64,000 nucleotides of DNA from Tubulanus polymorphus. Lineage: Eukaryota > Animalia > Nemertea. The stretch's first letter is position 1; every line of letters begins with the position of its first letter. The notes below the pieces were generated by a model. That model ran no database searches and was not told where the DNA came from. It saw only the letters and a program-made list of their open reading frames with translations. The translations under genes and the position numbers were made by a program. This document shows, in pieces, positions 2,383-59,289 of this stretch. The DNA lies in assembly GCF_964204645.1 (NCBI RefSeq), contig NC_134029.1:18222950-18286949 (forward strand), given 5' to 3'.

Positions 2383-2413
2383 CATGAACATATATCTAGT
2401 TTATACGTCCATG
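2383..2413. mobile_element. Ultra-short CATG..CATG insert with 7-bp TSD (putative P-superfamily excision footprint)
   Basis: aatagac|catgaacatatatctagtttatacgtccatg|aatagac. Confidence 0.7.
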
Positions 2414-2477
2414 AATAGACCATCTGTATGTATGTGAGTGTGAATGGAAACTTTGCCCTTCAATCACACTGTCATAT

Positions 2478-2512
2478 CAGGGAAGTGTGATGAGACTCAT
2501 CACACTTCCCTG
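2478..2512. mobile_element. Perfect 17+1+17 bp palindromic insert with 7-bp TSD (putative P-superfamily excision footprint)
   Basis: gtcatat|cagggaagtgtgatgag-a-ctcatcacacttccctg|gtcatat; the paralogous host MITE near 6050-6085 lacks the insert. Confidence 0.8.
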
Positions 2513-2731
2513 GTCATATCTAGCTGGACCACTCATAACATCGGATTAAAAAAGGTGGATGTACGCACTGGTTTGGTATTAGAATGGACTTAAATAGTGT
2601 GAACGCGGCTATATGCCTAATCTTTTCTCAGATAATGTATTCCTTGTGATAAAAGCGTAGAACCGTTAATTTCCACGTTTAGCGCAAAGCTATGTAGCTT
2701 CATTAAGGGAGAGATGGAAAATGCAGCTTAC

Positions 2732-2827
2732 ATAATCTGGTTTAAGTTGTGAAGTAGATGTTGATGTGTTGTACCTCGCAACCTTTGATAATCCATATTC
2801 GGTTGAATAAGCAATAAGTATTGGCAT
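2732..2827 (-). CDS. Candidate 96-nt exon of the minus-strand gene
   Basis: Long pyrimidine tract on minus (2840-2990), acceptor actag|atgcc, donor tat|GTAAGC. Open in phase 0 (MPILIAYSTEYGLSKVARY...) and phase 2 (CQYLLLIQPNMDYQRLRG...). Confidence 0.4.
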
Positions 2828-3037
2828 CTAGTCTCACATAGAGATGGAGGGAGGGAAACAGAGGGAACAAATAAACAGGTAATGGGCCAAAATGAAAGAA
2901 GGCTATAGGGAAAAGTGAAGGGAAGCTTCGAAGGGGACTGAGAATAAAGAGGAACAGAACGATAGAGTGAGAGATATCGTAGAGGCATTTAAAAGCTAAA
3001 CTCATTTAAATCAAACAGTATGATAAGAACTCCTCAC

Positions 3038-3097
3038 CACCTACCTGACAACCAACCAAACACTCGATTTCTTGTGTATCTTTTATGATATCATAAT
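3038..3097 (-). CDS. Candidate short exon (60 nt, or 53 nt with the alternative donor at 3045)
   Basis: Minus: cctttctgtacattttag|attatgat...gtcag|GTAGGT or ...gtaggtg|GTGAGG. Only phase 1 is open (YDIIKDTQEIECLVGCQVG). Confidence 0.3.
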
Positions 3098-3315
3098 CTA
3101 AAATGTACAGAAAGGTATAAAGCGATCGTCATTAGATATACTGAAATAAAGCGATAACATACATTAACTCAATAAAAGGTCAAGTCGTCAGGTCACATAT
3201 GACTATGAAAAGGCAATGATGAACCAAACAGAAGCTCTTTTACAATTACACATATTTCACCTTATTGGAAAACCACCTGTGTAGCATAATAAATATATTA
3301 TTGGCATTGAGAATA

Positions 3316-3474
3316 CAGTAGAACTCGGGTTTATTCAGATTTTTCAATCCAGATTTTCATTTAATTCGGATGGAATATTTGGTCCATTTAACACTGAACT
3401 ATGTAAACTATTATTCATAAGAATTCGGGAAAATCTGGGCAGTCCTAGTCATTCGAATAAAGTGAGTTTTACTG
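3316..3474. mobile_element. Tc1/mariner (pogo/Tigger-like) MITE
   Basis: TA|cagtagaactc...gagttttactg|TA; CAGT termini and TA TSD. Confidence 0.75.
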
Positions 3475-5370
3475 TATGAAATAAAAACACACCGCAAAAA
3501 AAGCACATGAACACAAATGGTTGGGGGAGGTTATCTTCACCCAACTGATCTAATATACCAATGATGGTTGCTGTTTATTTACTGACAGGGTCAGACGTGC
3601 TCGATCGAAGATAAGTGCTCAATGAACATATGAGTCATTGAACAAGGAGCCACCGATCACCACTGCTGCCAGGTTATTATCATTATTCCGTTGAATCTGA
3701 AGATTATGCCGGCTATAATTTCATTATTTCAATAAGCACATCAGTAACTCGGTACCGGCACCAGTTCCCTTGGTGATTCGATCGTAATTCGTGTTAATCT
3801 TCAATCAAGGACAAAGCGTCAGAATCTTTTCTCGTCCTTACAGTCTAAACGAACCCCGAGAATCAATTTTCCTAGCGTGATGAATATCTGTATGCTCACT
3901 GGATCTACTGTCAGCTGTTGCCACAGATAACTGTTCTCACTAAAATCCCGAGAAAGAACGAGAAAGAACGGGTCGTTTTTGCATTTATTCCTTTTTGCCT
4001 AAAACTTTTACTGCGTAATTGGACGTTACTGTGATCAAGTGAAACTGAAGTGGATATATTTTCAGTTTAAATACACTCATGAAAGTGATTTGAACGAGGT
4101 GCATAAAAATTGTTGGTATCAAATAACAATACATTTGATTTGACAGCTAAAAATTTCATACAAATTATATGAATAGCACTTCTATGACATTGCATGTAAA
4201 TATTTTTCCACTTTCATAGCTTTCTTTATATTATATATATCATATATAAATATATATATTATTCAATTATATATTTATATATTGTTTTCTGTAGTTTCTT
4301 TATTCTTGATTATGATGAATAGAATAGCTCTAAACTTAAAAACTTGTAAAAAATTTATTTGTGTGGTCATTGAACTATGATGTTGAACAGGCAGCTAGCA
4401 CAATGTACCCGCATATGAACCCACATGCATATTATAACCGTATATGGGATACATAGATTTTTGGATACATGAAAAATGTAATCCTTGCATACGCGAAAGT
4501 CTGGGTAGAGACGAGATTTGCAATTACGAATTTTATCAATGGAAACATGGAAAATTCATCTCTCATCAGGCTGAAATTCCTCTACTGCTTCAGTATCACT
4601 GAAACGAAATGAAACTACTCCAAGCTCAGCGATAATATTCATAAAACCAGACTAGGAATCAAGAATCTGTGGGAAACCATGGAATCCAATTTCTAAACGA
4701 AGTACAATGCAGATACTCAGACACTTTAATGACTGTCAACCAGCAATGATTTTTTCGTTGATAACATTTAGTTTAGTCACCTTTTGACTCAGATTAACAT
4801 ATACAAGCTATACATTTGCTTGATGAATGTTACATCAATATCAACCCTTGATGGCTTAAAGACGAGGGTTATTTTGGCTATCCCGTAAACAGCAACAAGA
4901 TATCGTGACCATGATTTCTATACTAACATAGAATAACTATTCTATAAATAGAAATTACAGGAAATAATTCATCATCTCCTGTTCTGTTAGCAATGCTCTG
5001 ACCTGCTTTTAGGGAAACCAAAAAAGTGTTATAGGGTGGATTCGGAGGGGGGATTCTGGGTTTGACTTATACAAACCACTCCGAGCTATCAAATCTCAAA
5101 AGCAAACCCAACAACCCCTGCCCATACAAAAATAAAACCTGAGCAGATTCAGTGCCTACATGATATACAATGAATTCAGATTAAGGTCAGATTTAGCCAC
5201 TTCAAGGTGCAAAGCAAGGTTCAACAATTCTAATAGATATAGAAATGCACTGATGTATTTTGAAGTCATCATAAAAAGGGCATACGATTGATTTCTAGGA
5301 TTTTGTTTCTGTGTTGTTCAGTCGTCGAGTTATGTAAAAGTGCAGTACTGTCGCGACATAGTTACAATGT

Positions 5371-5491
5371 TCATGTTGCTCTGCTGCAGTGCCGAGAGCT
5401 GATCTTCACTGCAGGAAATGGATTCCACGTCCTTCTCCAACCCGGAAATTTCTGTAGATCGATAATTATTCCGGATGCTCGCTCATCAATT
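5371..5491 (-). CDS. Candidate terminal exon (phase 2: IDERASGIIIDLQKFPGWRRTWNPFPAVKISSRHCSRAT*)
   Basis: Acceptor ttgtttttctgatatag|aattg and higher-GC sequence; no homology recognised. Confidence 0.25.
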
Positions 5492-5707
5492 CTATATCAG
5501 AAAAACAATTACACATGTATGTAATAACCAGCACATATAATGTAACAATGGGGTAATGACTATAGTTAAATAACAATGATCTCTATTATGATAGTTCATA
5601 AATACCAATTAGGTTATTAGCGCTTAGATTTTATATATACATATATATACATATATATATATTACATATACTTTTTACAGTGAAAACCTGACAATGTTCA
5701 AAACCAG

Positions 5708-5806
5708 GGGCCAGTTGTTCAAAAGTTAAAGGTTAAAGAAGATAACCGACAGATAAATATCAATTGTCACTATGTAAACTCAAACCAACTTTTGAGCAAC
5801 CGGCCC
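5708..5806. mobile_element. Harbinger-like MITE with CAG TSD (GGGCCAGTTG...CAACCGGCCC); related copy at about 35378-35510
   Basis: cag|gggccagttgttcaaaagtt...aacttttgagcaaccggccc|cag. Confidence 0.75.
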
Positions 5807-5939
5807 CAGGTTCACAAGATTTGGTTCAGACAAAATTGGTTTATAGTCAACCAGAAAATGAAGTTTCCATGATAAGAGTTCTTAGCCGGATCATCCATAA
5901 CCGCCCAGTCAAAATATGTTATTTCGAATGTTATAAATT

Positions 5940-6118
5940 TGGTTCATTCACGCTAGTGATAAGTCTTTTCATTCTAAAAACAATTATCCAGGTCCGTTCA
6001 AAATCTTACACCAAGAATGGACCATTTCTCTGTATATGAGTAGACCTGTCAATGACAGTGTTGCGTCTAGCTGGACCAGTGATAACAACTGATTTAAAAA
6101 GGTATGAATGCACAGCTA
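5940..6118. mobile_element. Decayed MITE, same family as 2250-2610
   Basis: cattcacgctag...tatgaatgcacagct ends; internal similarity to 2455-2560. Confidence 0.5.
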
Positions 6119-6377
6119 TGCGGGCCAAATTAGAGTGAGCTAACTAGCGAATGCGGGTATGAAGGGATAGCCCTGAATGCCATGATAAAGTGAGGCTGAT
6201 CTAACAGCATGCAGGTATGGAACTCAAAACACGGCTTCGTGCTTTCATATAGAAGACAGTTGATTTTATACATATAACATATAACATTATCCTTTTTAAC
6301 CATATAAAATGGATTTTGGGGCTAAAAGACTCTTAATTTCACTTGTAAAATGGCTGAATCTATGGAACTAAATGCCT

Positions 6378-6572
6378 TCAACAATTACATGTATGGTTAT
6401 AATTTCGGATGGATGTCCATGAAAAATAGTGAGCGAATGCATATCTTTGTGACCAACGAAGCTCCAAACGCATTAAATCTTCATTTTGACAAACCAATGA
6501 TGGCGCCCAGATGACTGCGGTGTCTAGTTTCCAGTTCGGTTCTCTCGGCGCCGCCGCCATCGATGATATAGC
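6378..6572 (-). other. Possible exon in a GC-rich block (acceptor aCTAACcatcgcag|); frame uncertain
   Basis: Branch-point-like ctaac close to CAG; phase 0 is open for 64 codons; no recognisable product. Confidence 0.18.
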
Positions 6573-7378
6573 CTGCGATGGTTAGTTTTTATTGTGTCAT
6601 ACACAAGCACCATTAAACAAATGACAACACAGTATGCATACCATTCATCACAATCAGACTAATGTTGTTTCACTAACGTATCATTTCCGTGGCTGATCAC
6701 GCAGCAGCACAGCGCGGCGCTGCTCTCTCGTTCACGATGATTCGTCGACGAATTAGGCACTGCCGTTATTCACCGAGGTTCTCTAATACACAGGTGACAC
6801 ATGTAAGACGAAATGCTAATATCATTCGATAGATCGTAATAATGGTACATGAAGTGGAATCGTTTCGAAATCCTTATCGAGTACTGGCAGCATCCACTAA
6901 TCTAGAGTGCAGTTACATTAGCCGTGCACGTAGCTTAGTACAGTGATATCGTGTTCTCTCAGAAGCATGTAGTTCGAGGAAACGTGATGACATTTTCTAG
7001 TTCAAGGAAAATTAAGGACATTTTCCAACTAAAAAATTAAAATAAATGCCCAACATATGTCTCCCCGGTAAGTTACAAGTAAACCCTCTTATATGATGGT
7101 TTATTACCAGAGCGACTAAATGGTGCTTGTAGCTCCTGGCACCTATGCGCCGCCCATCATAAAAACGAATTCAAGATGTCCTCCACTATGCTAGCCATTT
7201 TGAAAGAGCAAGAAACTTGATTCGCGATAGATGTTATTTATGGACACATAAAAATTTTAAAGAAAATCACACATCCTTTGTAGTGCGTAAAGCACTAACA
7301 AGTAATTCAAAATGTCTGCCTTGGTGCCCATAATGAAAGAGCGAGAAATATGATTAACCTGTGGACCTACCCCATTAT

Positions 7379-7706
7379 AGCCGCGATCACACAGAGATGA
7401 TTTGGCCCGGGCCAAATTGGTATGGATCAGGCTCGGGCCAAATTTGGCCCGTGCCTAATTAGAGAGCGCGTTCACACGCAAACCATTCACTCGATACTAA
7501 ACAATGCTCAAACAAAGCGAAGTGAATCATTTCCGGTGCCAGTTGCAATTCAAACGCAATCATTAGTCTGGTGCTAAAATTTGGCTCGGGCCTGGTCCGA
7601 CGTTTTTGGTCGGTCCAGATTTAGGTTCGGGCCCATTTGGCACCCGTGTGAACAGTTCTTCTGGGCAAAATTTGGCCCGGGCCAAAAATGCTCTAAGATC
7701 GCGGCT
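7379..7706 (+). mobile_element. PIF/Harbinger-like MITE (AGCCGCGATCACAC TIR; tttggcccgggcc subrepeats), full-length copy
   Basis: tat|agccgcgatcac...gatcgcggct|tat (3-bp TSD); highly similar copy at 60457-60739. Confidence 0.85.
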
Positions 7707-8825
7707 TATGTTTTCCAAGATTATAAGAAATCCCCCGCGTTATTTTGAAGTGTTTTGACTGCTAAAGAGAAGAAAGATTACATGGCACAAGCCCGCACTG
7801 CATGTGTAAAACATAATATTACCCGTACCAGGATGACATAATTTAAAGTGCGACATATAGTTGGCATATTGATACCTACAAATGCTTTACATTAACAATC
7901 AAATACTTGATAATAAAACAAAACATTCATAACCCACCCATCCATAGCTCAGGTAACCGATATTGTTGACTGAATGCTACATATATGCATCCAGTTGATC
8001 AAAACGTTTCTGATAAATAACTGCTTTCTAGTTTTATGTTATTTCGCAATCCTATTAAAAAATTGCGACCAGGCAGTCGGTGACATTTCTGTTTCATCAG
8101 TTCTCTTCAGTAGTAGATAGCAACAAAGAAAATCAATCACTGCAAGCGTTGAAAAAATGTACAGAAAAAAATCTGTAGTAACGTGCAGCAAAGTAATTAT
8201 ACCAACACTGTAATGTATCATGCGCTGGTAAATGTATTGACTAATTACTGTCACATTGTAATAGCTTCAACTGCATGAATAATAAGGGTTTTCTGCCCAT
8301 TCAACAGAAACCCTCTATTCGACTCATATGCCGAACCCATTTCAACACAATATCAAGCATATACTGGAAGTCTTCAGTCTGATGCATTATCCAAATTAAT
8401 TAATCTAATTTGAAGTATTTACGTAACACAGTAATTGTTGTCTTCATGACACTTGACACCCCCTTTATTGCTCACTAGCTCCATTTAAGACCTTTAATTT
8501 CCAACCTTGTAATAAAGCTATTTCCAAAATTTCAATGTTTTAAATTAGGCATCCAAGAAAATCCACCACGATCAGTCGCTTGCCGGTTCAGACTGAATAG
8601 AAGATTGTTTGAATGATCCCGAACTGAATTTCCCAATTATGTACTTCGATTTAAAAAAAAAAGATTCTGTAAACTCGCCCGCCGATCATACAACTATATC
8701 TGTACTTCGATTACTGATTTCAAAATCAAACCCCCTGTTTCGCTCCCGGCAGGTGTGGTGGGTCTGTAAGAAAAATCAGACGAAATTTTACCAAATAAAT
8801 AACAGGGACAATCCCTATTTTAAGA

Positions 8826-8967
8826 TTAAAAAACACCTTTAATATGAGTATCATTTGAATCTTCTAACTGTAAATATGACTGTTGGGCCTTCTCTTGAGC
8901 CAACTGGGTCCGGCGATTTAGCTGGAAGCTGGTAACATCTCCTTTCACGAGTAAACAGATTTCAACA
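8826..8967 (-). CDS. Candidate terminal exon (phase 2: VEICLLVKGDVTSFQLNRRTQLAQEKAQQSYLQLEDSNDTHIKGVF*)
   Basis: Acceptor ggtgcag|t with a weak pyrimidine tract; protein-like composition; the EIxxx[VL][KR]GDV motif and terminal VF* are shared with the 20459-20531 candidate. Confidence 0.3.
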
Positions 8968-10010
8968 CTGCACCATTTATGTATAATGATATAACGAACA
9001 ATCTTTCAATTCCACAAATTCAACACCTATACCAACATATTCAAAATCATATTATGGTACACACACAGCAAGACACATCAAAGCGGCCAGTGATCAATGT
9101 ACATCGAGACATTCTGTATTCATGTCGCATGGGCAGATGTTGTATGATAGCACAGACACACACGCGCGTGAAGAATCAATGTATAAAAATGCATAAATGC
9201 ATAATCGGAAAAGGCAAAAAGAACCAGTATGCGATACAACAAAAAACGATGTAGCTCAGTGTTGACGTTGTCAACCAATGGAATAACCGAATAATGAAAG
9301 CAAAACAAATAAACGAGCATGACGAATGCTTAGAACAAAAACAGATTACTCGTAGATTGGATAGCTCTTCCAATATGTTCCGATATATCATATATTGCCA
9401 AATATATTTAAATCAACAAGTTCGAAAAAAGCTGGCATTGAATGTAGGTGCGTGTTAATTTGGTTCGTTGAATAATGGACCCACCGCAAAGATTTCCTGC
9501 GTCAGCCGCTGTCTTGGGGGTTATTTTCGCCATGCGATAAACCGATTTGAAATGTACAGGAAACTAATTATAAAGCACAACGACTGAATTTACACATTAA
9601 TTGACAATGCAAATCGGTGGCATTCAGATTGCCAGAACTTCATTCACTCACTTAAGCCTGTTTAACTTTCCATTCAACGACAACAAAAAACATGTCAGTA
9701 AAATTGACGTAAGTAAGCAACTCTCTCGTGCTCTCTCTCTTGGCATATAAGTTGAAGTTTCACAATGCACAGATGTATTTCATTCTCGACAATTAAGCCA
9801 AGTGGATGACCATATGTATATGTGTATATACGTATAAATCGTTTCTAGCCAGGTTCATGCAGGCATTTTCACTCCTATCATGGCACGCAAGTGGTAGTTT
9901 TTTTCTGAATTGCCCTTACTAAAACTTACTTTCTAGAAAAGATAAGCACATGCTCATATAGGTCTTGTCTATATTCTAGTTGAACCCCGGTAGAAAACAC
10001 TCAGTAAAAC

Positions 10011-10031
10011 CATGGACTCGAAGAGTCCATG
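10011..10031. mobile_element. 21-bp CATG..CATG hairpin insert with 7-bp TSD (putative footprint)
   Basis: gtaaaac|catggactcgaagagtccatg|gtaaaac. Confidence 0.8.
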
Positions 10032-11130: not shown

Positions 11131-11146
11131 GGGGGGGGGGGGGGGG
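11131..11146 (+). repeat. Poly-G tract (G16)
   Basis: Read directly from the sequence. Confidence 0.9.
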
Positions 11147-31585: not shown

Positions 31586-31601
31586 CATGGACTTCAAATT
31601 C
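31586..31601. mobile_element. One-ended 16-bp CATGGACT insert with 7-bp direct repeat (putative footprint)
   Basis: ttacaac|catggacttcaaattc|ttacaac; the first 12 nt are identical to 57256-57267. Confidence 0.5.
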
Positions 31602-31649
31602 TTACAACCTCCAACATAACAATTCCACTTTCAACAGAAAATGACTCGC

Positions 31650-32047
<398 letters not shown>

Positions 32048-32979
32048 AAGGCTTGAATTAATGAAGGATAGACGAAATCCCTTGGGTTGAATTTAATTGA
32101 ACTGTGATTAAATGGTGTATAGTTGTGTGACATAGTCTATTTGAATCTTATTATACCCCTTGAGACTAATCAATGTGATTGCTCTGTCTCTCCCTCCCGC
32201 TCTCAACATCATCTCTATCTGTGTGTGCGTGTGTGTGTGTGAACACAGACTACCCAGATATATTCTCTTCATGTCACGAACGTTGCGACCGACTGACTTC
32301 GGCGAGCGTATCGAAAAAAAAAATTTAACTAAACAAGGTTCACGGAATCACTTCAAGATCAAGCGAGATATCTCAACGATATATACGGCCATGTTCGAAT
32401 GATTATCTCGACAATATATACCACCATGTTCGAACGATTATACCGAATATCGGGGCCGGCTCGCATACGTCTTCCGAATATCGCCGGTACAATTTTGCAC
32501 GGCTTCTTTCATCTAGTCCGAGTTTCTGACTCTTAAATGATTAAAAATCGCTGGCTTCAAACAAAGCGTTCTCACGCCATTGAAGGGAATTGGCAGCGTT
32601 TCTATTTTTTTACGCACTCCTATACCACCGCAAATGTTAGTACGCCGATATTATCATCAAAAGTGCCGGGGAGTAAATATTGCGCCCCGAAGAAAGGTAA
32701 TAGATTTCCTAGTCTAATAGAAACCCAGCCATGTTTGAATAATGCCACGTAATCATTCTAATAATATTCCCACCATGGCGATCAATCAGCCGTAATTACT
32801 CGCATAATTTGATCAAACTACTAATGCTTTATTTAAAAATGGCAAATAAAGCAGCATTTAGCTTTTTCGTTTGAATATTGAAAGTTGCTAAGGAAAATCC
32901 TAAGAATTCTAACCGAATCTATGGACAATATCAAATATGAGTATGAGTGCATGGCCAAACTAAGAAGAGTTTGCCGAAT

Positions 32980-37213: not shown

Positions 37214-37241
37214 TATGGCTTTTCCCATTAATGTACATATA

Positions 37242-44066: not shown

Positions 44067-45232
44067 ATTCTGGATAGAAGGATAGAAGTGTAAAAATAAA
44101 CTAAGGTACTCTATTACCATCCATTGTTTAAACTGTTGAAAATAAGAACATCAGTGGCATTTTTTCCTACTGTCATTTTCACTGGCAGCATTTTTACCGC
44201 TGGCATTTTTTCCTACATTCAAGAGTACCGTAAATAATGAACAGGGCAGACTAGAAACCACAAGGAAATTGATACTGAGCAAAAATGAAGTTCAAAACTT
44301 GTCGCAGTCGTAGTACATACATATATGAACCCGATGATTAGAAATGCCTCAAACAAGTAGATGCATTCTACTAAGATTGAGCTCTGATAGTTTTTTGCAA
44401 TAGGTTTTATCACAAAAACTTTGTTTTTTCTAAAAAATTCCTATCCCAAAAACATCAGTCTATGTCACTGGCAAAAGATCCAAGAAAAATGCGCCCGGAA
44501 ATGAGATACAATGACAAGCAGCAAGCATATATACGAAATATTGCTCAGAAACAGGACAGCAATGATGTAGGTAATCATTTCATTTCCGTCAAACCAAAAT
44601 ATTGTTCACAACGTTATAATCGCATGAATTTTAATGGGAATATTCAGTTGAAAAGTGAACAACATCGACTGAATGTATAATAATATGTAATCATCTGCAC
44701 GTATGCACATATACGGTCTCGGCGGCTTGTAATTTCATACCCTACGGGCTTCACACTACAATCAGTGAATAGATATTTCAATAGATTTCAAAGACTCTTC
44801 ACGCCAACTGTACACTACACATACTACTAGCGGTAAACGATGATGCTGCTTAATAATTGCATACAAAATTCAATGCGAATATCAATAAAAACCACTCGAC
44901 TAACACAAAAGATGATGAATTTTGAATGTTTTCTCGACGATGGGTTTTTGAGTACATCCATCCACAAAACAGTCGCGTAATATATAAATGGCTTTTTTTG
45001 AAATTCTGAAAAAATATGAGGAGCATTAATGAAGAGACGCCGCATTGCAAAAAGTAATAAATGTGCAATGGTTGGTCTGGTTGACAGTCGCAGAGAATTG
45101 TGCCGCAGAGAATTGCTGGCAGTAGCACAGCTGAGACCTTTAGGGCACATGGACACATGAATACATTCACTACAATGAACCATCATGATGCCACTGGGGC
45201 TATAACATGGTCAGCATTGTGTTCAGATTAAC

Positions 45233-45274
45233 CATGGATGTATAAACTAGATATATCTAGTCTATACATCCATG
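45233..45274. mobile_element. 42-bp CATG..CATG palindromic insert with 7-bp TSD (putative footprint)
   Basis: gattaac|catggatgtataaactagatatatctagtctatacatccatg|gattaac. Confidence 0.8.
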
Positions 45275-45364
45275 GATTAACCAATGAGCTTTGCGAATGA
45301 AGCATCTTGTTCTACATTGCCAGCCAGTGAAGAAATTGAACTGCTAAGATCAGCTAGGTATTGT

Positions 45365-45396
45365 CATGGACGTATAAACTAGTTCATACGTCCATG
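45365..45396. mobile_element. 32-bp CATG..CATG palindromic insert with 7-bp TSD (putative footprint)
   Basis: gtattgt|catggacgtataaactagttcatacgtccatg|gtatagt. Confidence 0.75.
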
Positions 45397-46429
45397 GTAT
45401 AGTGTAGGTCAAAATGGTGGCAGATCCGAAACCATAAAAGAAAGAAATGTCCCAAGCATATTGTTACAATGGTTGTTTTTCGAGGTTGGGCCTTGAAGGC
45501 TGTTAATGCCTATGTAGCAGTTTGAGCGACAAATCAAATGTTGCCCATGGTGACTGGTGGCAGAAAGGGAAGCATGGAAATAAGTAAGAGATGGCACCAA
45601 TGACGGCTTAAAAACTACCTCCGAAGCGATCAGAATTAGTTCAATTTTCAAAACCGTCTCAGTCTAATCCGAAGGCTGATCATTCGCAGACTGCCGATAT
45701 ATTGTCACGCGGGAGACACAACCTGTGCATAAATATTGAATGAATATAGATTTCCCGTGAGGTATTGACACAAGATCATATCGACGTATTGTCTACCGAC
45801 AATAGAACGTCTGCTCTTAAACAATTGATGAATAGAGAGACAAGAGACTAATTTGCTATTAAATCAAGTGTCATCGGTGGTGGTGGCTCGGCTGTCTGGG
45901 GTTCAGGGTGGAACAACGCCGGTGGTTGGCTGCTTCTGCACATACACGTGGATAGCATAAAATCTCTCGGCGGTCGGTTTTGATAATTGGAAGTAATTAC
46001 ATGTCGGCGTTGATAAGCAAAACCTGTTTCCTACGTGCATAACATAGAACTTCTATCAGGGGCTGAACTTATCATCGAAGAATCCATCCAGGCATATTGC
46101 GCACCACATCTGTTTAATTCTCGATTGTCGAGATCTTTTGTTTCATTTTTCACGGATCAGGGAGAATTGAAACAGGTCACGATATCCGTCGTCAGTCATA
46201 ACTAAGAACGGGCCTAAATCAGATGTATCACTGGTTTCAAACACAATCTAAAGATCAGTAAATTTGGTAAATTAGGCTTCTAGCAATCAATCCAACATTG
46301 AGATGTAGTAATCCATTTGGCTTTCATTTATTGTTCAACTTAGAGTCTGGTAATTGCTAATAGTTGCATACTCGATGATAAGAAGTTTCCTAGTTTCCTA
46401 GTATACTGGTCTATGACCATGTGATGAAA

Positions 46430-46445
46430 CATGGTAGAGTCCATG
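46430..46445. mobile_element. 16-bp CATG..CATG insert with 7-bp TSD (putative footprint)
   Basis: gatgaaa|catggtagagtccatg|gatgaaa. Confidence 0.7.
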
Positions 46446-46473
46446 GATGAAACGACCATATATAGAAATCTTA

Positions 46474-46811
46474 AGGTAGGGACACACGGGCACCTAGTGG
46501 CACGACTGGCACTTAGTGGGAGAGAGTTAACGAATCACATGATATCAACAATGCATCCTATTGGTTGATAAAAATGGATCGCTCGGCGAAATTCGCCGAG
46601 TGCGGGCAGACGAGCGAATTTGCGGGCGATCCGATCGCCGGCGTAAATAATCGGCCGAAAATATTAAACATGTTTGATATGGTCGATTTGCTGGGCGATC
46701 GAGTCAGCCGACGAAATCGTCGTCGCCGTGAATGGCCACACGAGCGAATTTTCCGGGCAATTTATAAATTCGCTGCGATCGGGGAAAAAATACGCTCGTG
46801 TGCCCCTACCT
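46474..46811. mobile_element. PIF/Harbinger-like MITE with TTA TSD
   Basis: tta|aggtagggacacacgggc...gctcgtgtgcccctacct|tta. Confidence 0.8.
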
Positions 46812-47697
46812 TTAAGTGTGTATCAGGCTTAATATCACCAACTACACCAAAACTACACAATCATATACACACACCAGCCAAAATCCCGTGGAAAGCACAG
46901 GTTTAGCCCAGAACTTCAAACTTTTCGATTTTTTGGCTGTGAATTTAGAAGGAGCATTTTAGAAATACGTTCTCAGGGCTTATTGTTAGCCAGGTCATTT
47001 TTGTCTAATGGCATAGCCGTTGTACCAGTCCATACAGACAGATATCGGTGTGCAAAAATCACAGATACAAAGAGCAACCACTGAGTCAAATTGTCGTATT
47101 TTAAACCATTTGATACATATGCCCCACAGTCACTAATACACTCAAAGAACTACTTCAAGATGAAACTGGTTTGTTTTTATTTTGAACATTTGAACAAACT
47201 ATTAATCGCATACATTCAAAAGAATTTTGTAAGGCACACCCTACATAGACACATAAGGAATCCATAGGTCATATGACATCATACGCATATATACGATACG
47301 ACTATTTTCAGCATACAGATACACGTTCCCCAGATAACAACTATTTTTTCGAAAAAAGCTGCATGAAATACCCTAACGTACAATCGAACACATTTCATAC
47401 AGGGTATCATGACGTGTGATGATATATCAGCCAGTAGCGATGCTATTCTATTCTCGCGTTCACATAAAAACGGCGACCGTTGATATCACTACGGTATCGC
47501 GTTTACACTGCCACACCCAGTTATCTCTCCGTATGATCTAATAACTCATCGCTATAAAACATAAAACGTGACATAAAATAAGCGCCTATAAAACGACGAC
47601 AGCGTTTCTAACTTTATTTACTACAGGTCGAGGCTTTCTACAGAGAGTCGCATTCAGCATAGAGCGCGCGTGTGCGCCTTCAAATGGAAGATGGATA

Positions 47698-47717
47698 CAT
47701 GGACTCTAAAGTCCATA
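47698..47717. mobile_element. 20-bp CATGGACT hairpin insert with near-perfect 7-bp TSD (putative footprint)
   Basis: atggata|catggactctaaagtccata|atggatt. Confidence 0.65.
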
Positions 47718-47916
47718 ATGGATTGACAAATTAATCTTATTTCGCATCAAAAATAGCTTTAACTGTAATTCGAGCCTTGTTGTCCGAAAAATCATATCCA
47801 CCGGGTAAAATAAAAATTTTGAATTGAATTGAATTATCATATGCACGTACAATTTCTCCAATCTCCAATCTAGACATTGTTTGCCGCCGATAGAATATAT
47901 CACATCTCTAAGTCCA

Positions 47917-48181
47917 AGCCACGATGATCATACAATCATTTTTTTGCCCGATCAAAAACGTCGACCCAGGCCCAAGCCAAATCATAGCATGGATCAAATT
48001 AATGCATGTGAATTGCTCCAGGTTCCGGTAGTGACTGACTTCCCTTAGTTTGAGCATTGTTTTAGTATCAAGCGAGTGGTTTACGTGTGAAAGTGCTCCA
48101 TAGTTAGGCATGGCCTGAAATTGACTCCGGCCTGATACGTGACAATTAGCCAGGTCAGATTGTCTCCATGTAATCACAGCT
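47917..48181 (-). mobile_element. Diverged copy of the AGCCGCGATCACAC MITE (partial copies also at about 49600-49680 and 50530-50665)
   Basis: agccacgat...gtaatcacagct ends; internal ccgatcaaaaacgtcg and ttgagcattgtttagtatc are reverse-complementary to the 7379 copy. Confidence 0.65.
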
Positions 48182-48569: not shown

Positions 48570-49035
48570 TGCCCTAAGCTTTATTACACTTAGGTTTGCT
48601 TTTGCCTTCAACTTCAGTTTCAGACTTGTCCTCAGCTCCACATTCAGCTTTATCCTCAGCTTCTCTATCAGCTTTTTCCTCAGCTCAAACCTTTTAACCC
48701 ATGTTTGCTTGTAGCTTTACTGCTTTACCCATCTTAATACTCAGGTTTGCCCTTAGCTCAAACTTGAGCTTTTCATTCAGGTATTCCTGCAGCTATATAC
48801 TCAGGGTTGCCCTTTCAATTTCAGCTTTTAGTTCAGGTTTGTCCTCAGCTTTGCCTTCAGCTTTATCATCAACCCAACCACAAATTTACCTGTTTCAGCT
48901 TTATACTCAGGTTAACCCTGAGCTAAGCCTTCAGCTTATCTTGAACTTTGCCTTTGGGTTCATTCTCAACTTCAACGCTCAGCTTTAACCTGAGCACTAT
49001 TTTTTGCAATCAGTTTTACCCAGTCTCAACCTCAG
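48570..49035. repeat. Degenerate 12-bp minisatellite (ctcagctttNNN / aaagctgagNNN)
   Basis: tcagct(tt) recurs at about 12-bp period with indels. Confidence 0.7.
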
Positions 49036-51579
49036 GCTCATCATTAAAACTGAACTCATCAAGCGATTATACGCCGACTAGGGAAATGTCACATACTTGT
49101 TGGTGCCGGCGGGGTGTTTCCCACTGATATCAAGACACTTGGCAGTTCCGATGTAAATACACTCCCCGTACCATAAGAGATATTCAGCATCAATTCGACA
49201 CATATCTGGAAAATAAGGTTTAAGACAATTCGATGAAATCAATATGACCATCTCAGTGGGTGACGAAGTAATATCGTTGAATGTCACGTTCATTATATCT
49301 GGGAGGTGTTCGTTCTCTCGCACCTCGCACCTCGCTGTGCTGGTTATATTGACACAAATCTCTATCACACCAGTCCAACTCATTTATAACGATCTTGCGC
49401 AATTAGTGCGCTATTCACAGGTACCGCTAGTCCTCATCACACAAACAGGCAGTGGCGAGCAAACATCAGCGCAGTTATTCTTATTAACCCTTCGAACCTG
49501 TATGGTAGGGTTTTGTTATGATTGCAATTAATGCGTTATATTAGCCTACCTTATCAGGTTGATAGCTAATGTTGTCTCAGCAAAAATCCTGCAGTTATCA
49601 GCCACGATCACACAAGCATTTTTCGCCTGTGCCAAATTAGGCCAGAATGATCACATGGGTGCCAAATGGCTTACGCTATATCGTTGCAAGTCCTTCCATG
49701 TAAAAGGCTCCTCTTTACAAAGCAAAATTATCCATCATAACTTTAAATCTATTTCATATACCTTACACCAAAATAGCAACCTTCTGGTGGCTGAGCTATT
49801 TACATTTCATGAATGCGAAGAAGTATGGGGACCTTAAATGTAATGCCATGATGTGAAGATGTAACCCTAATAAAAATGAACATATTTTACTTTCAACAAT
49901 ACCAGATAACTTATGTAAAAGGCCATATTCTATGTGATATTCATTTTTCACACATGCGATAGCCGAGCGCGCACCCAGCTCGATTAAGTTGAACCTATAA
50001 GAGGAATGACAAATCCCTGCACACAGCCCTCCCTAGTACAACATTGAAGAGACACGCTCCGACTGCTCGATAAGCTGGTTACCTTGAATAATCAATTTAT
50101 CAGAAGCCATCGCAATTTCCCTGATAAATCACTTTCCGGAAACAACCGAACATTCACGTTGTCAAAACCAATCGGTTATATTAGATAGATCGCTTCGAGG
50201 GATGGAAAATCTACGACGAGAGCTTTCATCCTCTCCGTCGTATCAAACAGCGACCTCCGCAAAAACTGCTGCCGCTCGCAAACGTAAGATTAACTTCACT
50301 TCGCTCATCATTCACCGGCATTTCTCAAATAGAAATCTCATTCACGCACGAAAAGCGGCAATCGTTGTAGATTGTATGTTATCACATACATTTTATCGAC
50401 GTGCCATCCTGTAAATCATAAGGTAGCCTATACAGGCTTATAAAACACAGAATCCCAAACATAGTGGAATCCCAAAAGAGAATTATCGTATCGAAAGGGT
50501 TGTATCAGAATATGAGTGAGACACTTCCTAAACCAGCTGCCCAATGTTTTGACCCGTGCTAAAACTCCACTCGGGCCTGGTCCGACATTTTTGGTGGCAC
50601 AGGCACAGGCACTTGCCACCCGTGTTAACAGTTGTTCCGGGCAAAAATGCTCGCGTATTTGCAGATAATTACTTCAATTTTTGATAGGTAAGTTATAGCT
50701 ATCGTGTGTTGAATCTGCCGAGTGAAACTCTTCTGTTCACCAGAATTTTACAACACTAGATTGCGACTTCCAACCAGAAATGCTAAGTTTCATTTAGGGA
50801 ATAATTGATTTCCGTAAGAGGACATTAACGACGAATCATTTACATTATCGCTAATTACCCGAGAGTTACTTATTTATAATCAAATCGGCGTGCTAATTAC
50901 TGAGCGAAACAGTAATTTGACACGCAACTTTCAGTAATTCAATATACGTACGTCGTATGTCGTAAACAAATATCAGAGCCAAGAACAAGGAAGGCGAGAG
51001 ATATAAAGTGGAAGAAGGTCAGAGGGAAGGATAAGAGGGGAAAAGATAACAAAGAAGCAAGAGATCGATGAAAGTGAATTTTCTTTCTTTTTTTGTTCTT
51101 TTTGTAGTTACTGTTTTTGCTTTTTTCTCCTTCTGTCTTTGTTTCATTCTCATTTATTAGGGGCCATAAATTGTATTGCCATTGGCTGGCCGGGTCCTTC
51201 ATTGTGCCGAAATCTTTATAGAATGTATAAATGCATTCATTCACTTTCAAAACAAAATCAGAGGACCGAGATTGGAGAGCTGACCAAATCGACTGGTTTG
51301 GGACTGACCGAGCACACCAGGAACTGTGAGTGGGGCATTGATTTTTTTCGAAATGGAAGCAATTACTGCCCCCCTCCCCGGCCGACCTCTGTGAGGAGAA
51401 TGGATGGTGGAGTCGGAAACCTACTTCTTTAAAAAGAGATTGTTTAAACGAGTGAGCTGTGGATTGTAAGGAAGTGAAAGTAAACTTTGTAAAAGTAAAC
51501 GTTTAACGTCAGGTTTTAATGATCAGCTGTCAATGGGAAAAGTAAAGAGCGGGCGTGCTGAGAAAGTAAACCTAATGAA

Positions 51580-51960: not shown

Positions 51961-52930
51961 CTCTAGTCTTTATACAATTCAGAAACATTATATCGATTCA
52001 CGAGCAGGGCAAATACGGTCGTGTTCGACGTTGTATCATTTTTGTACGAAATATGATGAAGAAACACATGAAAGAGAAAATCTCCGATGACGACGACGAC
52101 GTAGAGCTCTTCAGGCAATAGTCAACTGTTCCCCATCAAAAATGAGCCGCTGCAGCGGCAGCAGAGCACATCATCAAACACGATGAGGTGATGATTATAT
52201 GGCCATCGGGAACCTATCAAACCGGACGGATTATAGCCGAGACATCCTCTCAAAAACAGATTTTCATAACGACTTGTAAAAATCTACCTCTCTTTTATCA
52301 TTATCGTCATTTCTTTTTTCAATTAAGAAGACGCGCTCTCGTAAACGAAGCTTAGAAGAAGGCAACTGAGCAAAATGATTCAGGTAGAATGAGTATTGGA
52401 ATTAACGAAATTTTAAGCAAGGCACGGAGGAAAATCACTGCTTTTGATGAAAACTCTTATCACCTGCATTGGGAATATGTTCAACCGCACTGAATATAAC
52501 TCGAAACAGCTCCCAATCGTTATCAGCCCATGTAATTACTTCAAAAATCATGATACCTTAAACAGCAGTTAAGGGTCTTGTGAAAACCGATATTGAACAG
52601 CAAACTAGCTACATGTTATCATCATCCGCGAGTAAACAGTAATAACTATTGATAAACTTTGAATAATAGATCAGAGCAATACGTTGAAAAAAATCGGAAA
52701 TAAAATACTATTTGCATTATTCCGATATCTATTTTCTTAACACGCTTCAAGCATAATGGTCATACACGCTTGACATTCTGAAATTCAACGACTCATTGAT
52801 CTACCGACTTCAGATGTAATATCAATTAATCGATATGGCGATCTATCGTATCAATTATCAATTTTCTGTTAACAACAGAATTCTATATCTATGAATAGAG
52901 AGGTTATTTTGATTGAACATTCGAGGGATA

Positions 52931-53135
52931 TTAAGTTTAGAACCCACTACATACACAGTTTAAAAGACTAAAAGTGAATTTCTTTATCACAAATTGAAAT
53001 CGAGAGATACAACGTTTCAAACTATCGCTACAGCGAGCGAGACTTTGAAATCTCGTATCGTTTGAACTTAATTTTTCATAAATAAAATTCGCTTTTAATC
53101 TTTTGAACTTTGTACATAGTGGGTTTTAAACTTAT
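52931..53135. mobile_element. Almost fully palindromic foldback MITE (~100-bp imperfect arms)
   Basis: aagtttagaacccactac.tac...gtacatagtgggttttaaactt, with pairing continuing inward to tttcaaa/tttgaaa. Confidence 0.7.
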
Positions 53136-53239
53136 TATTGATCCTCCACGTCAGATTGCACAGGCTTTTCTACTGTTCACGGAATCTATCCCTTGATATC
53201 ATCAAAATTAGATAGTGGATTTTCTATCTGAAATATCAC

Positions 53240-53620
53240 TAGATAAACTGAAATTCAGGTTTCCTCAAGTTTTACATGAGTTGCAAGCAGAATGTAAAAA
53301 TATTAAACAAGAAACAGATTGTGTTTTGATGTTCAATGTTTGATTCGCCCGCTATCATATACAGCAGGACTAGCAATGACAAAAGTAGTAATTGTATAAC
53401 ATGATATCAAAATGGCGGTGATTTCGATCAGTCATGTGATCCATTCATTGTTATTGATTGGTTATTAAGTATGGGGTATATCTTGTTTAGTTACTCTCAT
53501 TGCACACAACAATTGAAACACTGTTTCTTGTTTTCGAAGCAGCACACGCATCAAAAAACATATACGAAAACATGTTTCTGTTTCTCGTTAATTTCGCGCT
53601 GTGTGCACTTCAAACATTTC
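53240..53620 (+). mobile_element. Decayed MITE, same family as 51580-51960 and 59930-60300
   Basis: Shared internal segments as described for 51580; boundaries approximate. Confidence 0.55.
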
Positions 53621-54771
53621 GAATGAAGAAGTAAAAACCCACAATATAATGAAAACGAAATGAACACTTTCAGTTATAGACGTTTCCACCCAATTCTATG
53701 TTCATTTCAGTTTTTGAAAATGGCACATAGAAACGTTGAATGTTCATTTAGTTTTTTCTTTGTATTGCTGGTTTTTCTACTTGATATTACACACTCAATT
53801 GTCAATGGAAACCAATTTCGAACAGAGTTATGACCACGACAATCCGGTCCGAATCTAATGGTGACTAACTGTTGATCGTTTTCAATATCAAATATTCACC
53901 TCTCTCAATAAGCAATCATTATTTTCTAGTTAATACGAATTCGCTGATGGCAGAGAAGTCCAATTTCGGCCCAATCGATCGCGTGTTTTGCGAGAGCCCC
54001 TCGACGGATTCTCGCTCAAAGCTAGATATAATCTATAACGTTCAATAAAAGAACTGACAGGCAGACGCAGATGAATCCATCTGTTTAGCTATGCGACAGT
54101 TAATCCAGATGAAAAGCTTTATGTCGCTGTAGCGATACCCAGCGCAGGAGCCGCCGCTGCAGTTACGGCGAGCGAGGAATGATGCTGAAAGACACCGACA
54201 GCAGTCAGCCGATGGATCTCTCTATCCGTATAATTACTGATGGAAATTCAAAGCTGCTTAATGATACTAGAAGCTTAACATAAACTCATCAAGCTAAACG
54301 AAACCCTTCATCGAATAATGAAACTCGTCATCAAAAACGTCGAAATACTCTCCCTCACTCTCTCTCTCTCTTTCGTCGACGTCGTTGATACGTACACAAA
54401 ACTCCTCGTTCCACCGACTGACATTTTCAATAAGTTGCCGAGTGACACGCGCGCAAATTCGAGAACAATAGAAATAGATTATTGAAATCTATATCAACAT
54501 TATCCGGCGGAAGAATTTGTGTGTATGTTTATATCGATTCGAATGATGAAATCATAGCGAGAAAGATTTATGTCAATACAGAAATTGAAGAAGTATCGAA
54601 TTTTAATCTGCGTATGAATAATGAATGTTACACCGATGGGGGGAAAATACTAGAAACACAACACTGCAGAAGATACAATGAGCATGAAACACGTACTGTG
54701 ATACTCCAGCAGAACACAGATCAAACATTCTAAGGGCAAATCAATCTGGTACTAGTGATGAAAATCCTTTA

Positions 54772-55119
54772 AAGATGGTTCCCACAGTTACATGAATTAA
54801 AAATTCCCAGGTTTTTTCCAAGTATTTCATGAGTGATTTTTCACTTTTCCCAAATGGAAAATGGGGCTGTTATGACATGAGGATTTTATAGTATGTCATC
54901 GTAGTCCAGTCAACATTTTAGTGGTGACCAAGGTGATTTTTCAGGAAAATTGCATGCTGAAAAAAATAAATTGCCCTTAGCAAATGCAATACGTGAAATG
55001 TAAATGAATTTCCCAGGTATTTCCTTGATTTAAGGAAAATTTCTCAAATTCCCAAATATTTCCAAACTGGGAATCATTATTTCTAAATTCCCAATTTCCC
55101 TGTTCCGTAGGAACCAATG
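54772..55119. mobile_element. hAT-like MITE with ttccc subterminal repeats
   Basis: ggttcccacag...ccgtaggaacc ends; multiple aaattcccagg repeats. Confidence 0.55.
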
Positions 55120-56332
55120 TTTAAAAAGGACCAATTTCTAGTTGTGAGTTAGATCATTGAGTCGAAATTAAATGTTCAATATCTCCTCTCCTCTCTCCTC
55201 TTTTCTCTCTTCTCTCCTCACCTCCTTTGAACACTTTGATAGAATATAATCACTAGATGCTAGGAATAGAAAATATTCCAATTTCACGACTTATAAATAC
55301 GTCTTTCATTTTCAGGCGCGCATTAAAAAACCATAACGCCGTATGAAGCGCATTAGCACGAAATCAGTACTGCGACTATACAAACCAAGCGAGGAAGTAA
55401 CTTTATTAGCGAGACTTTCAGCATGAATTCTCTCCATGTCACTGTGTGCCGATACAATTTCCTACCGTAACAAAGCAGCTAAAGCAAAAATAGTCGTGAC
55501 AATTTCCTTCCACATTTCTGAGTAGAAACGTAAGAGAAAATGGGCTACGTTTAATCTCATATGGATTTTCTATCGCAGAAACGAGCAAGCCCGTAAAAAG
55601 TTCACCAACTACAAGAGACTACAAATGACACAATACTATCAGTTTATTGTATATCAACATATCAACCGTTCGCGACTAACCTTTCTTTGAAATATCCGTA
55701 CGAGCACGTTTCATCGGAATTGATTTCAGCAAGAAAGTTGTACGCCCTACAGAAGCGTTCATCGACGATCGCCCAAGGCGTACACATCAGTTTTCCCGCA
55801 CATCAGCCTCTAGTACAAGTTTTTCCCCTTTTACCCTTTCAAAGTATATCGAATAACGAATAACGTACAAACTCGGCAACAAAAGAGCTTTCAAAAGAAT
55901 TTATCGCCACCAGTGACTTATAACTTTTTGAGTGTCTTATTTTTCAAAAATATATCACTTAAGTTCCCGCGTAACACGATGAAAAATAGCTTTTTTAAAG
56001 TGAGTGTGGCTATAATATTTGTAATGCATAATACATTGCAACAAATAAAGGGTTAGCACAATAGATCGACAAAAGAACAGCTAACTGCTGTAATCTCATT
56101 TGAAAATAAATGAATAAACTTTGTAACCAGTTTGTTCATGGACTTTGAAACAAATTTCAGAGTGCATGGTTTGATAGATCAGTTTTAACTTCTAAATCGG
56201 TGTTTAAGCGTTTTGCTCCGGGCTTATACAGACCAGTGTCAACTTTAACCTATATGTTATTCATAGGCTTCACGGCAAACGTCTTGAAAACCGGCCCCAG
56301 AAGAATTTTGAATGAAGCTCATTAGGCTGGAA

Positions 56333-56590
56333 CAAGGGCGGATCTAGAAAAACTGGAAGGAGAAAAGAAAAGATATTTTTCGAATAATGTAGCCATGTCA
56401 AAGGCCTCTATATTGAAATTCTGCCATCAGTTTTAGACATTTTTGAAGAAATGCATCCGAAAGGTTGCAATATCCAAAAGGATGAGTGTCAAATTATGAG
56501 GTTTTAACAATATCTGTCTTGATGAAAAGGGCAACCTGTTGGAAAGGTAGGGGTCCAGACCTCTGAGGCCACCCCCTAAATCCGCCCTTG
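56333..56590. mobile_element. hAT-like GGATCC-family MITE with perfect 5-bp TSD
   Basis: tggaa|caagggcggatcta...taaatccgcccttg|tggaa. Confidence 0.85.
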
Positions 56591-56814
56591 TGGAATTGAA
56601 ATGTCCAAAGTATCATTTCTGTTCAAAAGAGCCTAGCAGACAGATCAAGAAATAAGCAAGACAATTGGAAACTTTTTTGCTCATTTCATGCTGTATGGCT
56701 CTCTGAAACGAGAAGCATTGTTTCAATTACTGTTTGCTTGGCAGGGTAACCAAACAAAGAAACACCAACCAGTTAGAGGAAATAAAGTGACAGTTACAGG
56801 TCAACATATACAAT

Positions 56815-57160
56815 CTTGGATTCAAAGAAGGCCACCAGTCCATGAAATACATTCATAGTATAGATCAAAATCAACATTTTTCTTATCAAAGATGGCCCCC
56901 ATTCAGCCATCTTGGATAACATCATGCCCTATATTCATGCTTTAATGTAGATTGCCATCTAGTATTCTCATGTGAAATATCAATCTTCTACATCATATAC
57001 ACTCACAGATAGAGGCCAAAATGTAAATTCTTTTAATCAAAGATAGCAACCAGTCAGCCATTTTGGATGGCATTATTAGGACAGATATAATGCTCCAGAT
57101 GAAAGACGGGCCAAAATGTAGATTCAAAGTGGCTGCTAGCCAGCCATCTCTATAGGGATT
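56815..57160 (+). repeat. Second array of the ~145-bp CAAAGATGG/CAGCCATCTTG tandem repeat
   Basis: Units match those at 22520-23090. Confidence 0.7.
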
Positions 57161-59289
57161 ACTTTCAAAATAGGGAATCACCGAGCACCTAAGATGAAAA
57201 AGTAAGGACATTATCTCAACCGGTTTTTTGAGTCATCGCGGTAATGCAAACTTCTCATGGACTTCAATGAGTCTTTTATCCTCTGCTGAACTAAGTTCCC
57301 ACCGGCAGAAAACATTGCAAAAGTATCGATCTGCGTATTCGAAAACTACCCTAAATTGCCACAGGCATGAACATTTTTCTAAAGGATTGGTACAATACAA
57401 TGAGACGCATTTTGCCCGGAGAGATTCTGATTCCACAGTGTACATAACGTCTGCGGACCTTAGAGCTTCATTGGTCGTTATTCGCCGACGCTTTCTATTA
57501 TTCAAAGGGTCCATCAGTGGCCGACGACACCATTAGCTGTAAGCTGAGAATTTAAAGCAAATTAGCGTCGTTCATTAGCCAACCGGAATCAGACAGACCT
57601 GAGTAAGACGGATGTAAGGTCGCACGACAATGATGATGAGAGTCGCGAATGAATCGGAATCATGTGAACGACAAAATCTGCCCGCGCGGTCGTGCTCGCT
57701 CGCTGACGATCGATAAATCTCATCAAACCAAACGAGTTCTCGTAATTAATACCAGTCAGGTGTGATAGGTAAGCATGTCGCGCTACTGGGCGGAGTCGGA
57801 GCATTCAAACCTAACAATACCGGTTTCGCTGTCTATTATTACCAATCAGGCCGAGCGATGTTGCATTCTCTTCGATTACCAGCAACAATGAATAGCCTTC
57901 TCCCTTCTCCCTTGTAGGTTATCATTAAGATATTTCCATATTCTCTCGGTAATAATTACAACGTGTATTCATGGACCCTCAAAATCCATGGAGCGTTCAT
58001 CGTAGCATCCCGCTGGATCTCACCTACATGTACATAATCGTGTATATGAAAGGCTGGTGAACAAGTCTGGGAACTGTGAATTAATTTCTTATTCCCCTTG
58101 GACATGCATACCAATCGAATTGCATGAAATTGCATATAAACTTCTTTCACGTTCTTTAAGACCAATATTATGCAACTTTACCAGAGTTTTCGATCTTAGA
58201 AAGTCTGCCCTCAAAAAAAAATGGGATGCAATATTTTCCTCTGACTTGGGGCGTTTATCGAACTCGTGCCATTCCAATTTAGCATGGTCTACTGAATACT
58301 TATAGACAGGTCTTTCATTATTGCATGACTATAAAGAAGCCGGTCTTTACGCAACTTGCAGACCGAGAGCCGGCGTCAATTCTAGTTACGATCTCTCCGC
58401 ACTTTCGTCCTTTTTCTTGACATCGTCGTGAAAACGAGCCATTTATCAATATATTATCTCCTCTCAGCGGCCATATCAGTAATACCAACATGAGCGGATT
58501 TTCTTTGCTAAGCATATAAGACACAGCAGTGGCCTGAGACTGATGGAAATTACCACCTCAGGGGTTTACATATTACATTATAATGGAAATTTTCAGTTCT
58601 ACTGCGCGTGTATGATTGGGAAATTAGTATTTCACATCACTGTATTAGTTTCGGTCTCCGGAGCAATCCGAATAATATTCATTTACTATACCTTCCTTGC
58701 TAGTTCATTTGTGTACGGATTTTCTTGTTCGCGCAATGTTTGATCATTTAGAAGACTCTAAACACTGATCAGCCTTTAACAAACATGCTTGAATGGCTAC
58801 AATCTTGTTAACATTAACCCTCCATTATCTCGTTCGAATCAAACAGCCGCGCAAAGATGATTTCCTAATCGCCCAGTATCGTTCTATGAAACGAATGCAA
58901 TCGTTGAAATAATGGGCTTCCCGAAGTCTTGGAGTGATTATCTTGACAAGATAATCGCTCCAAGCTGAAGTGCGACGGCGCCAATTAAAATCAACTTTCG
59001 CTGAAGTTTATGGATTATTACTGAAAATATACCTAACATTGTCTCATGCAACAACACTAACACCAATATATAAGAACTAGACTGACAACATGACAAAATC
59101 ATCACCATATTCGTTATCATGTGATACAACTAATACTTTTCTCACCACTAATGGTGCTGTAGTAGTCAGTATGTTTCTTGTTTTGCTATGCGCCATAGTG
59201 AACAGACTAAACAATGAAACACATTAACAAAAGATCTGTCAGACCAGAGCCAAGGGATCAAGTCATGATTCGGGTACCATGTTCATTAT

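Follow-up and report, generated by a model that had tools for sequence, protein, structure and literature searches.

Excision of the Drosophila melanogaster P element leaves remnants of the terminal inverted repeats (TIRs) of both ends, in arms limited by an overhang, between intact target duplications. In the rows of Tables 1-3 of PMC2895639 drawn on here, these junctions are blunt, share a short microhomology or carry a templated insertion, and no arm exceeds the 17-nt overhang; in the portion of PMC9682801 used, the bases that follow this overhang begin AGG. Inserts of similar build lie in a stretch of 64,000 nucleotides from the nemertean Tubulanus polymorphus (RefSeq assembly GCF_964204645.1, contig NC_134029.1, positions 18,222,950 to 18,286,949 of the forward strand), referred to below as the window, which sits on a 24.9-Mb contig in a genome of 268 Mb. 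They share with the fly products overhang-limited arms from both ends, intact target site duplications (TSDs) and a G-G pair one base past the arm limit. The fly arms reach at most 17 nt and the fly TSD is 8 bp, whereas here the limit is 18-20 nt, depending on the family, and the TSD is 7 bp. The fly junctions are laboratory products, while those described here are, in our reading, natural germline scars fixed genome-wide, in thousands.

The 1360/Hoppel and Galileo elements, according to the consulted part of PMC3698922, are members of the P superfamily that also make a 7-bp TSD. The parent elements identified here differ from them in their short TIRs of 31-41 bp, their introns, the lack of a detected THAP domain and the presence of two genes; this is a comparison by description, and the parents are not assigned to either group. 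With the fly 87-kDa transposase (PDB 6P5A/6PE2) and vertebrate THAP9, the parents are predicted to have in common a helix-turn-helix (HTH) domain, a split RNase H domain with a D-D-E triad and a GTP-binding insertion. In contrast to these canonical proteins, which carry an N-terminal THAP domain and a C-terminal domain (CTD) in the same polypeptide, the parents appear to encode their CTD in a separate gene on the opposite strand and, in families A, B, D and E1, have a zf-AD-like cysteine domain at the N-terminus. P excision scars are a known kind of sequence; what is added here is a natural genome-wide record of about nine TIR families, in which the limits of 18-20 nt go with a word inside the TIR and the parents have two genes and no detected THAP domain. 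A literature search, whose coverage of subscription papers and Repbase Reports was thin, returned no genome-wide natural P scars, no stagger other than 17 and no split P transposase.

Probable excision scars and their parent elements

The inserts consist of the outermost 5-20 bases of P-superfamily elements, taken from both ends and joined between 7-bp TSDs, and they are very probably immobile scars produced by end joining after excision. The original prediction had read them as P-superfamily excision footprints on the strength of the window alone, and long parents, variable lengths and P-type transposases have now all been found. Longer elements with the same termini, on whose existence that prediction depended, are present for all three end families of the window, A (CAGGGAAG ends), B (CATGGACG ends) and C (CATGGACT ends). 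The parents of A, B, C, D, E1, E2 and F have TIRs of 31-41 bp and exact 7-bp TSDs.

Family A has 214 exact 17-mer matches in the genome. Many of its end pairs bound 2.15-kb deletion copies that are about 97-98 percent alike, three long copies measure 5,511-5,910 bp, and internally deleted copies come in many sizes from 136 bp to 2.2 kb. Family C is represented by an element of 5,890 bp, which has TIRs of 31 bp and a TSD of 7 bp. Family B has only eight long ends, with copies of 1.15-1.2 kb bearing 35-bp TIRs and a decayed transposase lying 1.8 kb in from one end, against 274 strict scars; the scars also record families that have nearly vanished. A protein search of the genome gave 49 matches and led to further families with 7-bp TSDs, namely D (5.3 kb), E1 (5.6 kb), E2 (4.8 kb) and F (6.4 kb), while E3 and E4 are known from their ends. 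The E families (L193, L194, L321, L322) terminate in CT..AG rather than CA..TG, with the same type of transposase and the same 7-bp TSD.

Short inserts with these ends were counted with a strict pattern that required 8-10 exact bases at either end and allowed no more than 30 in the middle. It matched 1,287 two-armed inserts (A 169, B 274, C 354, D 77, E 298, F 115), and the reversed patterns for A to F matched 0, 0, 3, 0, 0 and 1. This count includes copies amplified within other repeats (L120/L121/L127; L089/L092/L096/L103), so that independent events are fewer, and it misses decayed and one-armed scars. The flanking duplication is 7 bp long, as none of 115 exact duplications reaches 8, and its symmetrised profile, palindromic by construction, is G54 T83 T47 (A/T) A47 A83 C54 percent. 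Among the matches listed, paralogous empty sites inside other repeats hold the 7-mer once (for example L018/L330, L128/L311 and L120/L024), which identifies the duplications as true TSDs.

By analogy with the biochemistry of Drosophila P, the transposase would cut one strand at the tip of the element and the other strand inside the TIR. Each flank would then keep a 3' overhang of TIR sequence, and end joining would seal the overhangs after trimming, annealing or templated fill-in. The joins found within one family have a corresponding variety: 47 family A inserts comprise 36 distinct sequences of 20-58 bp, of which 14 have overlaps of 1-2 bases, 12 are blunt and 21 contain filler. Both the variation in length and sequence within a family and the microhomology joins had been put forward from the window, and both hold across the genome, where microhomology joins such as the CTAG join at 45365 occur beside blunt and filler joins. 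The family A inserts are accordingly unlike a miniature inverted-repeat transposable element (MITE) of uniform length and sequence with complete TIRs, since they are diverse and the inner TIR is absent.

The recurrence of identical products at unrelated sites, as a mobile micro-element would produce, weighs against this account. The sequence at 2478..2512 recurs identically at unrelated sites with different TSDs, and the CTAG-joined form at 45365..45396 is a common product of family B. Among the matches listed, single forms make up 16-27 percent of four families (a 32-mer in D, 13/50; a 29-mer in E3, 20/75; a 36-mer in F, 9/50; a 32-mer in B, 8/50). Such identity at unrelated sites is the best argument for mobility, and it raises the alternative that the commonest short forms (27-38 bp) are micro-MITEs mobilised by P-type transposases, with the rarer forms as scars or decay products. 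We regard this as improbable. Every dominant form joins at a microhomology of 1-4 bp, and in the tabulated part of PMC2895639 a single microhomology product accounts for 14 of the 68 junctions from fly excision assays; dominant forms amount to at most about a quarter of the copies among the matches listed. Lengths are continuous, arms end at a single family-specific base, and the short forms are devoid of the inner half of the TIR, which in the fly structure, as far as the used portion of PMC7776569 describes it, is bound by the HTH domain. Scars without the inner TIR are therefore probably immobile.

In five family A elements, which measure 136-1,299 bp, an end of 17-20 nt is joined to 110-1,290 bp from the opposite end. 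Such half-copied elements are what one would expect where gap repair on the sister chromatid breaks off and the overhang left free is then sealed, and aborted repair of this kind would account for them within the excision model. They also bear on the idea that the inserts are extreme internal deletions that arose through the usual repair of double-strand breaks or through slippage at hairpins, with no transposase cut. Internally deleted copies spanning 136 bp to 2.2 kb do exist and long TIRs can pair, but breakpoints should then spread over the 31-36-bp TIR and beyond, whereas they cluster at or before bases 18-20, and the half-copied elements end at the same base. We give this explanation hardly any weight. 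It also counts against the excision model that no full-element or empty allele turned up: contigs of four runs, from at most two samples of one study, carry the assembly allele wherever they cover the four scars within 44950-47950, a comparison too small to prove anything. The sequence at 45233..45274 is identical in contigs from both public samples.

Several scars stand beside or inside one another. At L089, L092, L096 and L103, near 1380-1530 and within a multicopy repeat, three to four family B and C scars are tandemly stacked at one site, separated by near-copies of one 7-mer, a pattern of repeated insertion into a duplicated target. Nested or abutting scars (L044/L268, L172, L319, L101, L073) place B inside E, E3 inside C, C inside E3, and B beside a deleted A element. 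Family D elements at L187, L188 and L189 hold a 21-bp family D scar in the intron region of their own transposase gene. A tandem array at G000:C6:22458030-22458428 has 15 units of 26 bp, each opening with the 18-nt family D arm, and is apparently a minisatellite grown from a family D scar. Finally, a family A element of 23.6 kb that is flanked by an exact TSD (L068-L070, G000:C4:18603060-18626656) houses other mobile elements, including retrotransposon-like gag/pol frames.

Arm-length limits and the probable position of the inner nick

An arm either spans the whole TIR or has no more than about 20 nt, and almost none breaks at 21-30. Their limits, which had been expected at up to about 17 nt, lie instead at 18 in A, C and D, 19 in B and E1/E4, and 20 in E3. 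In arriving at these values, bases that the opposite arm could supply were set aside, and A, C, D and E3 were counted by hand. Among the matches listed, family A has 58 non-parent arms of at least 18 nt, found with a pattern that barred G at base 21 to drop parents; 33 stop at 18, and base 19 is present in 25, being explained by the opposite arm in 19 and left unexplained in 6, so that 33 of 39 unambiguous arms stop at 18. Family D behaves alike, with 32 of 36 arms stopping at 18 once the 15 copies in the tandem array are left out. In family B, 25 arms stop at 19 and one at 20 (48 arms of 17-23 nt, two of them ends of long elements). The 99 listed arms of family C stop at 17 (38), 18 (35) or 19 (17, with 14 explained by the opposite arm), and nine are longer, three being long-element ends. 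In E3, with 75 listed and two of these parent-like, base 20 is present in 24 non-parent arms, which in 14 cases the opposite arm does not account for, and none of these arms continues to base 23. The limit of 19 in E1/E4 rests on fewer arms, with E1 keeping a C at 19; that of F is probably 19 and that of E2 probably 18.

These limits follow a word in the parent TIR. The word NGGA starts at base 19 in A, C, D and E2, at base 20 in B, E1 and E4, and at base 21 in E3, and in every family with the word the limit is the base directly before it. The limit of family D, as well as the existence and register of the E3 and E4 parents, was predicted before searching. Because the limit directly precedes NGGA in all families but F, the nick is likely set by the inner TIR. 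We consider it likely, if less so than excision itself, that in these THAP-less two-gene P elements the inner-strand nick is fixed by the conserved inner-TIR word, leaving an overhang of 18-20 nt by family, and that the scars are a readable fossil record of the cut site. Judged from the repair products, the nick would fall after base 18 in A, C, D and probably E2, after base 19 in B, E1, E4 and probably F, and after base 20 in E3. Both excision and cut site are inferred by analogy with the fly, and the rule agrees with the fly structure, in which the HTH domain holds on to the inner TIR and the outer strand forms a loop with a disordered stretch. The position of the nick would then be set where the protein grips the inner TIR, not at a fixed distance from the tip, and the outer-strand loop would absorb one to three extra bases.

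The scars could instead be real and share one fixed cut offset (17 or 18), with longer arms arising through templated fill-in or chance filler. The last kept base is A in most families and is often supplied by filler in an AT-rich genome, and limited synthesis on the sister chromatid can add TIR bases, as the few arms of 20-34 nt illustrate. But family B keeps base 19 in most of its long arms and base 20, which is also A, in one; family D is without base 19 in 32 of 36; E3 keeps two further bases and E1 the C at 19; and each limit shifts with the NGGA word. A single offset is for these reasons unlikely, though clearly a stronger contender than mobile micro-MITEs.

Some observations weigh against a nick placed by the word. 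Family F has no NGGA word, and a few arms exceed the limit (6 of the 99 listed in C, at 20-23 nt, and one 34+17 E1 insert). Few arms underlie the limits of E1, E2, E4 and F, and E1 cannot be distinguished from E4 before base 19. In A and C the limit might be 19 if the last base is often lost.

Nine related TIR families with limits of 18, 19 and 20 nt in one genome offer a direct, testable rule for the placement of the inner nick. If it is true, scars give the cut site of uncharacterised transposases without biochemistry, and with it natural spectra of end joining in the host germline. Sequences of this length would presumably be too short for the usual repeat annotation.

The core transposase

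The parents are predicted from their frames to encode P-type transposases of the P superfamily. A 627-aa frame of family A matches the Pfam model TNP-like RNase H N (E 2e-26), and its later exons weakly match the GTP-binding and RNase H C models; a 773-aa frame of family C matches RNase H N (E 2e-23) and the GTP-binding domain PF21788 (E 5e-22), and PF21787 is above cut-off in both families. When the family C frame is aligned with 6P5A, the fly P transposase (E 6e-13), D386, D489 and E739 fall on the fly D-D-E triad D230, D303 and E531. When the residues listed as GTP contacts in the used portion of PMC7776569 are followed through this alignment, most are kept in family C, including F-D and N of F443/D444/N447, V401, S409 and D528, which suggests a GTP-binding insertion domain in the parents. 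A non-P transposase, which would have contradicted the excision reading as first proposed, is thereby set aside. Mollusc THAP9-like proteins share about 40 percent identity with the core protein, and the parent genes contain introns.

The N-terminus departs from expectation. The original prediction looked to a THAP domain, and none was found in the frames of A, B, D and E1 read at the N-terminus. A zf-AD-like cysteine domain stands there instead in A, B, D and E1, and the family A frame from its first Met matches zf-AD at E 1e-5, below cut-off. One database homologue combines the core with the RAG1 N-terminal Pfam model. At its other end the core gene stops about 70 residues past the catalytic E, like its mollusc homologues, and 17 of 63 database homologues with a located motif stop soon after that residue.

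A hAT origin, suggested by a resemblance of the CAGGG ends, is ruled out by the 7-bp TSD and the P-type protein.

A second, convergent gene

In all seven parents examined, a homologue of the CTD forms a separate, convergent gene on the opposite strand, whose frame has a YxxGY..RGGL-type motif that is degenerate in some parents. At E 1e-10 the protein family to which it belongs runs to 1,451 clusters, and lengths among the best 150 stay within 193-535 aa. A profile of this family ranks the CTD chain of the fly transposase, 6p5a_B, first (E 0.019), and 17 of 96 members weakly match PF12596. The predicted model of the protein superposes on chain B of 6P5A with Z 12.4 and a root-mean-square deviation of 2.2 over all 118 residues, the next hit having Z 7.2, and Foldseek returned 6p5a_B at no better than E 0.73, with probability 0.98. 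The second gene alone had no useful match in a single-sequence PDB search or in the ESM Atlas, and a word-indexed search for longer proteins containing it gave nothing useful. The model points to the second gene as the source of the C-terminal domain of the transposase.

Two-gene P elements occur at L067, L164, L184-L189, L193, L194 and L201 (G000 C4, C3, C6, C2, C8, C5, C7, C1, C12), and both main frames are open in the one at L184, a family A copy. The CTD-homologue gene is preceded by a PHD-like frame in E1 and by a C2H2-like frame in C.

The inserts of the window and their density

Ten inserts had been proposed in the window (Table 1). All ten sequences are in place, and a TSD is clear in eight of them (six exact, two with one mismatch). 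The proposed CA..TG ends hold as a pattern, not universally, for the insert at 31586 terminates in ATTC and that at 47698 in CATA. The last two, at 57256 and 57970, were recovered neither by junction analysis of the inserts nor by the family-directed scan, and one decayed scar, at 56137, was added.

Table 1. Scars and candidate inserts in the window, with their arms and flanking duplications
Feature	Position	Strand	Length (bp)	Arms and join	TSD
Family B scar	2383..2413	.	31	Right-end arm 19 nt; left arm short, plus filler	Exact 7-bp
TSD of the 2383 scar	2376-2382 + 2414-2420				Exact 7-bp
Family A scar	2478..2512	.	35	Family A TIR arms, 18 nt + 17 nt	Exact 7-bp
Family C scar	10011..10031	.	21	9 nt + 10 nt; filler 2 bases	Exact 7-bp
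One-armed family C-like scar	31586..31601	.	16	Left arm 8 nt; no right arm	Exact 7-bp
Family B scar	45233..45274	.	42	19 + 4 filler + 19	Exact 7-bp
Family B scar	45365..45396	.	32	Join at 4-bp CTAG microhomology	1 mismatch
Family C scar	46430..46445	.	16	5 nt + 11 nt	Exact 7-bp
Family C scar	47698..47717	.	20	13 nt + 8 nt; terminal base altered	1 mismatch
Decayed family C-like scar, additional to first reading	56137..56168	.	32		1 mismatch
Family C-like left end alone, unconfirmed	57256..57277	.		No right arm	No clear TSD; flanks match 5/7
Unconfirmed insert	57970..57990	.	21	Family C-like complementary ends	No clear TSD; flanks match 4/7

Chance does not produce such inserts at this rate. Inserts that start with CA, have ends complementary over 4 bp and stand between exact 7-bp repeats number five in the window and none in each of 10 Markov shuffles. 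A scan directed by the parent TIRs finds nine where 30 Markov shuffles average 0.07, a small P value that overstates the case in a window picked for its inserts. The density of one scar per about 6 kb, proposed as general, turns out to be that of a local hot spot. By a looser scan, 662,740 bp outside the window (200 kb taken blind, 100 kb neighbouring and about 363 kb of flanks) hold six scars, or one per about 110 kb, so that the nine in 64 kb (one per 7 kb) are about 15 times the background. Extrapolated to the whole genome, this background amounts to roughly 2,400 scars of families A-E. Local CpG ratios show no pattern with the hot spot, and of the 104 window open reading frames of at least 75 aa, the 71 scanned against Pfam gave no match.

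Some scars of the window lie in close pairs, 65 bp apart at 2383-2512 and 90 bp apart at 45233-45396. The scar at 46430 adjoins a high-copy repeat (46503-46870) where contig depth is about 50-160 times that of its flanks. Copies of a dispersed repeat with many GGCCCGGGCC-like words occupy 7373-7692, 50542-50646, 59284-59360 and 60451-60724, and the segments 31700-32060 and 48600-48970 contain a long (TA)n tract and a decayed 12-bp tandem repeat.

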